Positions 7,484-36,532 of a stretch of DNA of 64,000 nt are shown piece after piece. Positions within the stretch are counted from its first letter, which is position 1. Each line of letters begins with the position of its first letter. The notes below the pieces were generated by a model. The model had not been told where the DNA came from, searched no databases, and saw only the letters and a program-made list of their open reading frames with translations. The stretch is from Saccostrea echinata. Taxonomy: Eukaryota. Where the stretch lies: positions 7,812,001-7,876,000 of the forward strand of contig NW_026889750.1 in NCBI RefSeq assembly GCF_033153115.1, read 5' to 3'. Position numbers and translations under genes: made by a program.

Positions 7484-8096
7484 ATGGCATCTAATTTCCT
7501 GTTAAATGATCAACAAAACTTTACCCGAATGGGGGTAGCCTGCGTGGACGAGATAAGCTTAGTGTTGGAAGATATTCTAAAGACACAAATTGCACCAAGG
7601 GACTTGTATAGCAAAATATGTTCATGTTCGGAATTAACAAAAAGCTCACATAGCCTGAGGCCAGATCAAAAATCAGTTTGTTTCCTCTCTCCACCGTCTG
7701 TCCCAGACTATAGTAAGTTTGATGTTAGTTTACTTTATACTCTAATACGAAATCTGTGTCAATGCTTAAAACCATCGCAAGGATGGGGGGAAAACCCCTC
7801 TCCTACAGACACACAAATTGGAGATGACATTGAGCGTCTCAGATTGTTTAGAAACGAGATGTTTGGACATTTACCTTCATCAAGTGTTCCTGACCACGAA
7901 TTTATGTTACAATGGAAAGAGTTGGAAATTATTTCTAAGAGAGTCCAGACATTTGTAAGGTTACAAGGACACACAACTTCATGTAATTATGAGGAAAAAC
8001 TTGCAAACATAAAAAGATTTGAGTTTGGCTTCAAAGATAAGGAGAAGTATGAAATACTGCTAAAAGGATTACAGCAACTCTACATACAAACAGAAG
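7484..8096 (+). CDS. Exon encoding a DZIP3/hRUL138-like HEPN domain
   Basis: NFTRMG...L.PDQ....F...[18 protein letters not shown]...PSQGWG..P...[19 protein letters not shown].......D.EF...W is the signature of this HEPN family; donor GAAG|gtaaac, phase 1. Confidence 0.9.
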
Positions 8097-35881: not shown

Positions 35882-36532
35882 GATCAGTTAGCCACATTAA
35901 CTGTGCACCAAGTGGATGAATTTTAATGAATTTTACATTTGTGGTAGACAACACCGTATCATGTATACAGTTTATCTGCTAAACGTCCGGCAACAAAGAA
36001 GACTTTAGACATTGCTTTAATTTTTTAAGCTTTGGACCCTCTCTCAGCCTCAGAAGACCATGAATTATATAAACTTGAGTAATTGTTAAAACGTATTTTA
36101 AATAACAAACCATTAATATGCACTGTATTCACTTTCAGATGCTTGAAATGCAAAACGATTCTGTGCCTGTCCAGTGAAATGAGGAAACTTAAAGCTCATT
36201 ATGCATGCGTAAACGGTGACTTTAAAAATCTTGTTTTCTTCGAAAGAAGTGAAAAAGTTGGATATGCAGGAGACGATATTCAGGTTGGTCTTGGAAAACT
36301 GAAATGCAAGGAGTGTCAGGAGAAACTTGGAGTCGTTGCTCTTTACAAAGAGGTGCACTTCCCCATTTTGCAAATTAAGTCGTTAAAAATTGAGAATAAC
36401 CAGAAAAAAATGTTTATACCGGTAGTTAAGAAATGGAAAACAGTAGAAGAGAAGTATTTTACAGTGCCTTCTATATCTTTGGATGATTTGCAAAAGATTT
36501 CAAAAACCGGAAAATTACTCAATTTGGATTGA
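7484..36532 (+). CDS. DDX58-like: Non-canonical RIG-I-like receptor: HEPN(DZIP3-like) - 5x Ig - DED - TRADD-N-like - acidic linker - DECH helicase (Hel1/Hel2i/Hel2) - pincer - CTD. Coding exons: 7484-8096, 8195-8503, 8604-8873, 9052-9363, 9510-9794, 13951-14247, 15334-15381, <18616-18718, 18938-19147, 19224-19508, 20373-20432, 20597-20887, 20975-21132, 21357-21538, 24195-24399, 24505-24667, [one exon not visible], 29466-29620, 29708-29840, 30310-30555, 30681-30848, 31179-31437, 36139-36532
   Basis: Every visible exon has AG/GT boundaries, compatible phases and no stops; visible coding sequence sums to about 5.15 kb. RLR motifs: [11 protein letters not shown] (Q), PTGSGKT (I), IFDECHH (II), GLTAS (III), GIIFVRTR (IV), [11 protein letters not shown] (V), QAKGRGRA (VI), CLKC...CKEC (CTD). 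Continuity across the 18481-18615 gap is inferred. Confidence 0.8.
8195..9794 (+). CDS. Four exons, each encoding one Ig-like domain (8195-8503, 8604-8873, 9052-9363, 9510-9794)
   Basis: Each has the C-strand Trp and an F-strand tyrosine-corner motif ([32 protein letters not shown]); all are phase 1-1. Confidence 0.88.
10125..11242 (+). mobile_element. Helentron/HINE-type non-autonomous element with an internal ~140-bp tandem array
   Basis: 5' aacaagaagtgtttgtgaaacactgatgccccc, repeated aaggtcaaggtca/aaaagttatggccaaggttaaag units, (ACAG)n microsatellite, 3' palindrome ending ggggcataaaaa; family also at 27268, 31618 and 55698. Confidence 0.85.
12270..13927 (+). mobile_element. Decayed, 5'-truncated Penelope-like retroelement (reverse transcriptase), intronic
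   Basis: Frameshifted ORFs with [60 protein letters not shown] and [11 protein letters not shown]; no GIY-YIG domain after the RT. Confidence 0.9.
13951..14247 (+). CDS. Exon encoding the fifth Ig-like domain
   Basis: ctttcag|GT GTA CCA...[11 protein letters not shown]...VEW...YIGST...[10 protein letters not shown]...CAG G|gtattt, phase 1-1. Confidence 0.85.
15334..15381 (+). CDS. 48-nt linker micro-exon ([16 protein letters not shown])
   Basis: tttacag acceptor, G|gtaagc donor, open in phase 1-1. Confidence 0.65.
15408..15493. repeat. (TC)n directly followed by (GA)n, a self-complementary microsatellite
   Basis: Direct reading. Confidence 0.85.
15839..15982. repeat. Long inverted repeat (core of about 36 perfect bp) of a foldback-type non-autonomous element
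   Basis: ttttagagtttcattgggatatgacatgaagtcggt pairs with accgacttcatgtcatatcccaatgaaactctaaaa. Confidence 0.8.
15983..16918. mobile_element. MITE with short TIRs and TTAA target duplication (Kolobok- or piggyBac-like)
   Basis: ttaa-ggacgttcgatcctga at the left and tcaggatccaacgtcg-ttaa at the right (14/16 match). Confidence 0.65.
17250..18050. repeat. Diverged tandem duplication (about 480-bp period) with a poly(A) tract between the copies
   Basis: gaattcctttgaataaa..tactcatttatggaa.ttctcat... at about 17250 and 17728; A-run at about 17640-17683. Confidence 0.8.
18616..19147 (+). CDS. Two exons encoding a death effector domain (<18616-18718 and 18938-19147)
   Basis: [26 protein letters not shown] / ELMGKD...[42 protein letters not shown] fits the DED pattern (F..LL..L...L....L..LKFLL ... 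L..LL....R.DL). The first exon is missing from the supplied ORF track and its acceptor lies in the gap. Confidence 0.8.
19224..19508 (+). CDS. Exon encoding an alpha/beta domain resembling TRADD-N-like domains
   Basis: ARFHVNG...[14 protein letters not shown]...[27 protein letters not shown]......[16 protein letters not shown], phase 1-1. The exon is solid; the family assignment is by pattern only. Confidence 0.6.
20095..20285 (+). mobile_element. Short, highly decayed Penelope-like RT fragment
   Basis: Aligns by eye with 13262-13445 (gatatat...gaactcaaaataaaa.acaccacagtctgcacatccgtttcacatttggat...ttttctatcgtcagcttccct). Confidence 0.7.
20373..20887 (+). CDS. Two exons encoding an acidic low-complexity linker (20373-20432, 20597-20887)
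   Basis: Open in phase 1-1 and Glu/Asp-rich; the second exon has a tandem aag/tag acceptor (20594 or 20597). Confidence 0.7.
20975..24667 (+). CDS. RLR Hel1 exons (20975-21132, 21357-21538, 24195-24399, 24505-24667)
   Basis: [53 protein letters not shown]...[25 protein letters not shown]...ANLDA. Confidence 0.95.
22147..22932 (+). mobile_element. Helentron/HINE element carrying about 4 copies of a ~165-bp Cg170/HindIII-like oyster satellite
   Basis: 5' aacaagaggcccatgggccac..cgctcacctgag; units tattgtggccccgccctaccccc...gaatctacactacc...ggttcttgagaagaagatttt spaced about 165 bp; 3' ttcagctcagatgagctaaaaa. Confidence 0.85.
24880..26109 (+). mobile_element. Second decayed Penelope-like RT copy with an internal deletion
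   Basis: ORFs 24879..25625 and 25568..25906 are near-identical to the 12.3-13.9 kb copy; YIDD is mutated to YIDV; the sequence jumps from KRDDF directly to the 3' region. Confidence 0.9.
27268..28170 (-). mobile_element. Helentron/HINE element, same family as 10125-11242
   Basis: Reverse-complement of the family 5' end (atcagtgtttcacaaacacatctcgatt), internal ttgaccttg units, (CTGT)n and ttttatgctccc end. Confidence 0.8.
29466..31437 (+). CDS. RLR Hel2i, Hel2 and pincer exons (29466-29620, 29708-29840, 30310-30555, 30681-30848, 31179-31437)
   Basis: [10 protein letters not shown]...[12 protein letters not shown]...[18 protein letters not shown]...[26 protein letters not shown]...[20 protein letters not shown]...IQAK|GRGRA...[17 protein letters not shown]. 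Confidence 0.95.
31618..32115 (+). mobile_element. 3'-truncated Helentron/HINE copy (10125 family)
   Basis: aacaagatgtgtttgtgagacactgatacccc followed by family repeat units. Confidence 0.75.
33713..33930 (+). mobile_element. 5'-truncated V-domain SINE
   Basis: atcccactgtggtacgtggagaccgg...ttcggataagacagtataaaccaaggtc...aaagatccc...gggacgttaaacaacaaacaa. Confidence 0.8.
35309..35600 (-). mobile_element. Full-length tRNA-derived V-domain SINE
   Basis: Minus strand: A-box aggcacagtggttagagcg, B-box-like ggactcgaatccc, V-like core cttcggatgagactgtataaaccgaggtcc, tail gggacgttaaacaacaaacaa. Confidence 0.85.
35811..35878. repeat. (TA)n microsatellite
   Basis: Direct reading. Confidence 0.95.
36139..36532 (+). 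CDS. Terminal exon: RLR C-terminal Zn-binding regulatory domain (CTD)
   Basis: [10 protein letters not shown]...RKLKAHYAC...[13 protein letters not shown]....[14 protein letters not shown]...KKWKTV; phase-2 join to 31437; TGA at 36530-36532. Confidence 0.93.

Follow-up and report, generated by a model that had tools for sequence, protein, structure and literature searches.

RIG-I-like receptors (RLRs) assemble on double-stranded RNA (dsRNA), and HEPN ribonucleases (RNases) act as pairs. We describe here a locus predicted to join both in one protein, in a 64,000-nucleotide (nt) stretch of the Saccostrea echinata genome (assembly GCF_033153115.1, contig NW_026889750.1, positions 7,812,001-7,876,000, forward strand; hereafter the window, whose positions serve as coordinates below). 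In the portions of the sources consulted, a HEPN, immunoglobulin (Ig), DED and TRADD-N block makes up the dominant expansion of TRADD-N in Crassostrea gigas (Kaur et al. 2021, PMC8195603); it is followed there by beta-propellers or cGAS+TPR, and TRADD-N is proposed as a switch. The family table of Anantharaman 2013 likewise records an oyster HEPN expansion. RLRs with Ig or DED N-termini are described from Lophotrochozoa, among them CgiRLR6, which has four Ig domains and is induced by virus (Yao et al. 2022, PMC8998645). Fusions of HEPN with NACHT occur commonly in pearl oyster and in cnidarians (PMC9646362, PMC8260672), with 202 DZIP3-type HEPN matches in pearl oyster (PMC9646362). The single HEPN passage in the consulted part of an Aplysia paper concerns an NLR. 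Finally, Lingula XP_013399073.1 is listed as HEPN+coiled-coil+TRADD-N(DEDD2)+RLR helicase+RIG-I_C-RD (PMC8195603, source data 1 to Figure 4), while Exaiptasia contributes HEPN+TRADD-N+SF2 partial proteins to the Kaur Figure 4 source data (PMC8195603). At the Saccostrea locus, sequence comparison indicates an RLR in which the oyster HEPN-Ig5-DED-TRADD-N cassette stands in place of the CARD exons.

The gene model lies on the + strand and comprises 23 exons encoding ~1,752 amino acids (a total that presumes a hidden DED-exon start resembling those of homologues), with no stop in the visible sequence. Domains were called using Pfam profiles with curated cut-offs, and run in the order HEPN, five Ig exons, a 48-nt exon, DED, TRADD-N-like, a 60-nt exon, a linker, RLR helicase and C-terminal domain (CTD). 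The downstream part corresponds to P0023, a database entry labelled RIG-I-like receptor of Saccostrea echinata. The features are as follows.

7484..8096, + strand: HEPN, first coding exon, DZIP3-type, 204 amino acids (PF18738, E 1.6e-22; R123-N124-x4-H129 at 7850-7870)
8195..8503, + strand: Ig-like exon 1, phase 1-1, corresponding to family copies
8604..8873, + strand: Ig-like exon 2, phase 1-1 (I-set, E 8e-4)
9052..9363, + strand: Ig-like exon 3, phase 1-1
9510..9794, + strand: Ig exon 4, phase 1-1 (Ig_3, E 3e-9)
13951..14247, + strand: Ig-like exon 5, phase 1-1, donor used in one RNA-type contig
15334..15381, + strand: 48-nt linker microexon, phase 1-1, open, with a 21-letter contig match; kept in the second cassette copy
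18616..18718, + strand: first DED exon, visible part (P0023 residues 4-37); 5' end and acceptor under N
18938..19147, + strand: second DED exon (PF01335; the DED as a whole scores E 4e-7, below cut-off)
19224..19508, + strand: TRADD-N-like exon, the cassette's last (model pLDDT 95.7; PDB 1f3v; atlas)
20279..20295, + strand: putative breakpoint, residual CARD2-exon 3' end and donor, aligning with two CARD-RLR paralogues
20373..20432, + strand: 60-nt native RLR exon, found after CARD2 in relatives (alignment with relatives)
20597..20887, + strand: acidic linker exon, native to P0023's RLR clade (sequence comparison)
20975..31437, + strand: helicase core, ten exons, motifs Q, I-VI and Hel2i (Pfam and motif reading)
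20975-21132, 21357-21538, 24195-24399, 24505-24667, 26302-26397, + strand: helicase exons 1-5
29466-29620, 29708-29840, 30310-30555, 30681-30848, 31179-31437, + strand: helicase exons 6-10
36139..36532, + strand: RIG-I CTD exon (PF11648, E 1e-21; both zinc CxxC; stop 36530-36532)

A first-pass annotation of this DNA had proposed one phase-compatible exon chain from the HEPN exon into the RLR. Its two blocks hold. The HEPN and five Ig exons (7484-14247) join by GT-AG in phase 1 into 695 stop-free amino acids, or 711 with the microexon, and the 16 exons from 18616 to 36532 match residues 4-1038 of P0023 exactly, with GT-AG at every visible junction and 1,035 stop-free amino acids; continuity at the DED acceptor, which lies under N, is drawn from homologues. 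The exons it listed also stand, although two had been overlooked (15334-15381, 48 nt, and 20373-20432, 60 nt), and the visible sequence is open up to the stop codon at 36530-36532, in line with its statement that none occurs before 36532. It had named a misjoin at either N stretch as a danger; this is unlikely, given a collinear, N-free second cassette copy with the same order and similar Ig5-DED spacing. The reported lack of a signal peptide or transmembrane segment agrees with a hydropathy scan (as distinct from a signal-peptide predictor), in which no 19-residue window exceeds 1.55, and a secreted or membrane Ig receptor was rejected for this want of a hydrophobic segment. Among the Ig exons, only exon 4 lies above the Pfam cut-offs and carries the D-x-G-x-Y-x-C motif; the remaining four have Pfam E values of 8e-4 to 0.07.

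The RLR part is complete. Helicase, RIG-I_C and RIG-I_C-RD all score above the Pfam cut-off, and the SF2 motifs Q and I-VI with Hel2i, as well as the two zinc CxxC motifs of the CTD (PF11648), are present; motif VI reads QAKGRGR, as in the oyster clade. Together with the retained R123 and H129 of the HEPN, this bears out the earlier view that the motifs of both ends are intact. The N-terminal tandem CARDs of canonical RIG-I and MDA5 are absent, as had been claimed: six CARD-region queries gave no match between the preceding RLR and 21000, where just the tail of a CARD2 exon is left. The five RLRs nearest to P0023 all bear CARDs (S. cucullata, 76% identical; O. edulis, 67%; M. gigas and C. virginica, 57-58%), on which ground an ancient conserved fusion was rejected. 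In a helicase and CTD tree, built quickly and without bootstrap from 30 rows hand-picked from 260, P0023 falls inside a CARD-bearing clade as sister to the S. cucullata CARD-RLR (SH-aLRT 99). The fusion is apparently young and lineage-restricted.

The edge of the replacement can be placed. Positions 20279-20295 align with the CARD2 exon's end and its donor in two CARD-RLR paralogues; the native short intron and 60-nt exon come next. What the locus shares with the second cassette copy stops in this same region, with an overlap of ~13 similar bases. We infer that this is the breakpoint of a swap by microhomology. The two linker exons downstream are jointly 55% identical to P0024. Eight RLR CTD matches fall within ~213 kb on the contig, and the last of them belongs to the fusion gene. 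Elsewhere in this cluster (G000:C1:7696916-7714131; L012:4916-9000, L011:1521-1916), RLR-type CARD exons are immediately preceded by an unclassified exon and by a second, unrelated DZIP3-type HEPN exon (38% identical to that of the fusion, E 1.4e-26); downstream come two more CARD2-like exons and no helicase hit. This region is possibly a HEPN-CARD gene, and would then be a second HEPN graft in the RLR cluster.

The N-terminal cassette is a known oyster module. A search of longer proteins with the HEPN exon gave 22 hits among 586 candidates (40-61% identical), those with a named source all from oysters. Several have HEPN, four or five Ig domains, DED and a TRADD-N-like domain followed by divergent C-termini, namely a second HEPN, an HSP70-like module or a long region without Pfam match, and one carries a death domain after the Ig string; a cassette-only protein is annotated in M. 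gigas (P0011). Within the Saccostrea genome, a DED or TRADD-N-like exon lies no more than 20 kb from six of the ten close HEPN loci inspected. At one cassette relative (G000:C17:5090438-5103500, L039-L040) the cassette leads into a single long exon, STAND-like as judged from the sequence, that encodes a P-loop (GEPGCGKT) along with ankyrin-like repeats: another sensor type in the variable slot. The RLR fits this slot, because the cassette precedes varied C-terminal modules in other oysters. The domain order found here (HEPN, Ig repeats, DED, TRADD-N, variable module) is that of the Kaur 2021 cassette family, and the position of the TRADD-N-like exon after the DED matches the consulted part of that paper (PMC8195603). 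The TRADD-N-like assignment, made in the first reading, was upheld, weakly: the top PDB row for its model is the TRADD N-domain 1f3v (E 7e-3), among ferredoxin-like folds, and an atlas score of 0.85 for NCOA6_TRADD-N serves as a lead only. This exon gave no Pfam hit, and a PDB search with the family alignment was uninformative on TRADD-N, the Ig parts of long rows dominating.

The second, collinear cassette lies ~38 kb upstream (G000:C1:7781538-7803387, L004-L001), before a different RLR, a P0029-type copy, and is followed by a partial helicase-CTD duplicate. This sibling has HEPN frameshifts and a nonsense codon, a 5-base DED deletion and a linker-exon frameshift (at least three frameshift sites in all). 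The window copy shows no lesion in 2,732 cassette coding bases, while introns of the two copies diverge by ~5-11% (one short intron by 22%) and pairwise dN/dS is 0.52. From intron indel rates, a neutral copy would be expected to carry ~8.7 frameshifts over these 2,732 bases, a figure inflated by the use of introns as a proxy for exons; with the sibling's four lesions as the mean, the chance of none is ~0.02. In simulations of 3.5% change, the upstream block stayed stop-free in 1.8% of trials. The window cassette has thus probably been kept as coding sequence, although its conservation does not by itself show splicing to the RLR.

These data also bear on whether the locus is a recent private rearrangement that has no function yet and is heading, like its sibling, to pseudogene status. 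The fusion is known from one assembly only, its nearest relatives carry CARDs, the sibling fusion is broken, RNA cover is sparse and the tandem cluster contains partial duplications, all of which would fit. Set against this are a lesion-free cassette beside introns that differ by ~7% from the sibling, helicase and zinc motifs that are intact though the RLR part is just 76% identical to its sister, and the status of P0023 as the sole RLR of its clade found in the assembly. We consider a functionless chimera very improbable.

Our preferred reading, held tentatively and at somewhat less than even confidence, is that the locus makes one cytosolic fusion protein of ~1,750 amino acids in which dsRNA binding pairs the HEPNs of neighbouring copies into an active RNase. 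The helicase and CTD would bind dsRNA and protein copies would assemble; assembly would bring together the HEPN domains of neighbours and activate the predicted RNase. RNA would then be cut without MAVS, output by MAVS CARD-CARD contact having been lost. The Ig string would act as a spacer; DED and TRADD-N would serve as scaffold or switch and may in addition draw in death-pathway proteins. These steps follow from the general properties of the RLR and HEPN RNase families. The HEPN scores 80.3 bits against a curated cut-off of 27, its exon is modelled as helical (pLDDT 89.7), and the R, N and H of R123-N124-x4-H129 are invariant in 23 of 23 aligned cassette HEPNs. The genome holds at least 150 DZIP3-type HEPN matches (150 of 264 candidates scored).

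Several observations weigh against this reading. No cassette-RLR fusion occurs among 260 RLR hits, no protein of 358-2000 amino acids identical to the HEPN exon was found, and the sibling cassette-RLR fusion is dead. The HEPN model has no match to solved structures at E<=0.001 (a Csm6 row gives E 4.9, TM 0.36), and in the literature searched, largely without subscription papers, we found no paper showing RNase activity of a DZIP3-type HEPN. At the join, the DED acceptor is out of sight under the N stretch before 18616, about 450 bases lacking in the sibling lie shortly upstream of it, where a repeat-like insertion (18071-18480), also missing from the sibling, could affect splicing, and P0023 begins at the DED Met. 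One contig from sequencing run X1 continues past the Ig3 donor without splicing; from run X2, a contig of 2,059 letters starts at 21307, 50 bases inside the intron before 21357, which may be a retained intron or an internal start. RNA support for the upstream block is one contig at depth 4, with 21 letters on its shorter side against a 31-letter bar for a bridge.

That contig (run X2, 212 letters, depth 4.1, one mismatch) departs from the genomic sequence at the Ig5 donor (14247), and the 21 letters at its end equal the start of the AG-flanked, open, phase-1 exon at 15334; these letters occur once in the window, the sibling keeps the exon, and the join, though short, falls exactly at GT and AG. 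Since Ig5 is joined to the microexon in this contig, the upstream block is transcribed and continues beyond Ig5. None of the candidate runs is recorded as RNA, two of five contain part of the stretch, and the RNA label of the run used is a guess; run X5 contributed no aligned contig. Of the 22 joins, one is seen directly in RNA-type contigs and 15 others rest on the P0023 model; intronic repeats hid most exon joins in contig mapping, and missing cover was not counted as evidence.

Two separate products would account for part of this pattern, with a HEPN-Ig(-DED-TRADD-N) transcript ending in an intron and an internally started DED-RLR or helicase-only transcript. The start of the database model at the DED Met, the hidden acceptor and the contig beginning at 21307 would be expected on such an arrangement, the sibling's DED acceptor is preceded by a TA repeat rather than a pyrimidine tract, and cassette-only P0011 is annotated in M. 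gigas. Read-through of the TRADD-N exon meets a stop at 19544-19546, and further on lie ATTAAA (19861) and AATAAA (20145); however, such poly(A)-type sites are at background, since AATAAA occurs 1.9 times per kb in the window, and the microexon and TRADD-N donors fit the consensus at 7/9 and 8/9 places. Both the sibling and a 47%-identical family member have the DED acceptor three codons ahead of P0023's Met, so this Met is internal in the family. The annotation of P0023 from the DED onwards may reflect either thin RNA cover or a genuine separate start. An alternative upstream acceptor near 18028 would hit a stop here and was not accepted as the ancestral site, the family member using the near-Met acceptor. 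The RLR's own first exons are gone, which leaves the cassette promoter as the obvious one. We therefore regard two products as unlikely, and infer the microexon-DED join and a full-length mRNA from the homologues.

A single fusion protein could also work by scaffolding, with DED and TRADD-N, clustered by dsRNA-driven assembly, recruiting caspase-8/FADD/TRAF-like partners, or as a CARD-less, LGP2-like regulator; the HEPN would then be a passenger, an RNA binder or otherwise switched. DED and TRADD-N adjoin the helicase, the HEPN being ~500 residues off behind five Ig domains, and DED-RLRs and IG-RLRs without reported HEPN exist in the consulted part of the literature (PMC8998645). The cassette moves as a block, therefore the HEPN need not be the selected part, and it is the most diverged exon between the two copies (13.9% vs 2-7%). 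Yet R123, N124 and H129 are invariant across all 23 cassette HEPNs. A cassette-HEPN profile run against the RLR hits found a HEPN in 1 of 260, P0147 (Potamilus streckersoni KAK3611678.1), which lacks any Ig, DED or TRADD-N hit; the HEPN itself therefore seems a useful partner for an RLR. Scaffolding without HEPN cleavage is in our view an improbable account, though one to be taken seriously, and we retain the dsRNA-gated RNase as the tentative preference.

Other features of the window are two degenerate, intronic LINE-like reverse-transcriptase fragments (12300-13920 and 24873-26110; the first RVT_1, E 0.007, mostly absent from the sibling), tandem arrays at 3730-4202, 10553-11154 and 22228-22839 with units of 57, 129-150 and 166 bases, and an adjacent gene (44200-48194) whose Fz and NTR domains make it a secreted frizzled-related protein.

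DZIP3-type HEPNs are greatly expanded in bivalves; in the papers found, their RNase activity is inferred from the motif alone, and most sit on sensors whose ligands are not known. Since the ligand of RLRs is known, a HEPN-RLR fusion would allow a direct test of RNA cleavage by this family and of its gating by a sensor. The main interest lies in this link between a predicted RNase and a dsRNA sensor, which recurs and can be tested; the locus also records, in a farmed oyster genus, a cassette taking the place of CARDs, together with the breakpoint. The first-pass annotation overestimated its novelty, as the cassette is described in oysters, IG- and DED-RLRs are described, and HEPN+TRADD-N+RLR is listed for Lingula. 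Its suggestion of seeking the same architecture in bivalve proteomes can be set beside the 260 RLR hits, among which there is no cassette-RLR and one HEPN-RLR, P0147; no experimental study of a HEPN-RLR was found in the literature searched. A broader proposition, which we offer as a doubtful possibility taken as a whole, is that the placing of a DZIP3-type HEPN on a RIG-I-like helicase has repeatedly given animals a dsRNA-activated RNase in one protein (oyster, freshwater mussel, brachiopod), as a MAVS-independent shortcut equivalent to OAS-RNase L; the Saccostrea locus would be the youngest case, with a readable breakpoint and a dead sibling as control.

Among established systems, the KEN domains of RNase L and Ire1, Cas13 and Csm6 are Rx4-6H RNases activated when two HEPN-type domains pair, and are triggered via a second messenger, a kinase dimer or a guide RNA. 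The locus HEPN has the Rx4-6H motif in common with them (R123-N124-x4-H129), but its model shows no significant structural match to any. Potamilus P0147 is like the locus in placing a DZIP3-type HEPN with Rx4H on a full RLR, and adjoins a CARD-RLR by locus number; it differs in lacking Ig, DED and TRADD-N hits, is known from a database gene model alone and is of separate origin, because it groups with unionid CARD-RLRs. Lingula XP_013399073.1, compared by its listed architecture, shares an N-terminal HEPN and TRADD-N on a full RLR without CARD, whereas its TRADD-N belongs to another clade, no Ig or DED is listed and the phylum is different. The Crassostrea expansion (NCOA6 clade) has the N-terminal block and order seen here with a variable module after it (PMC8195603); that module is a complete RLR in Saccostrea, in contrast to the beta-propellers or cGAS+TPR of the consulted text. 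At least 11 'RIG-I' entries are listed in the Kaur architecture file, and those listed are all DEDD2-clade proteins from other phyla (PMC8195603). The non-canonical RLRs of Yao et al. resemble the locus in their exon-wise grafting of new N-termini and tandem clusters, but the term HEPN occurs 0 times in the main text as consulted (PMC8998645). Bivalve and cnidarian HEPN-NACHT NLRs likewise use a DZIP3-type HEPN as effector of an oligomerising sensor, which is a STAND NTPase rather than an RNA helicase, and in the consulted parts of these papers RNase activity is only proposed (PMC9646362, PMC8260672). The Saccostrea locus thus places an already described cassette on a new sensor, and at least two other lineages offer parallels.

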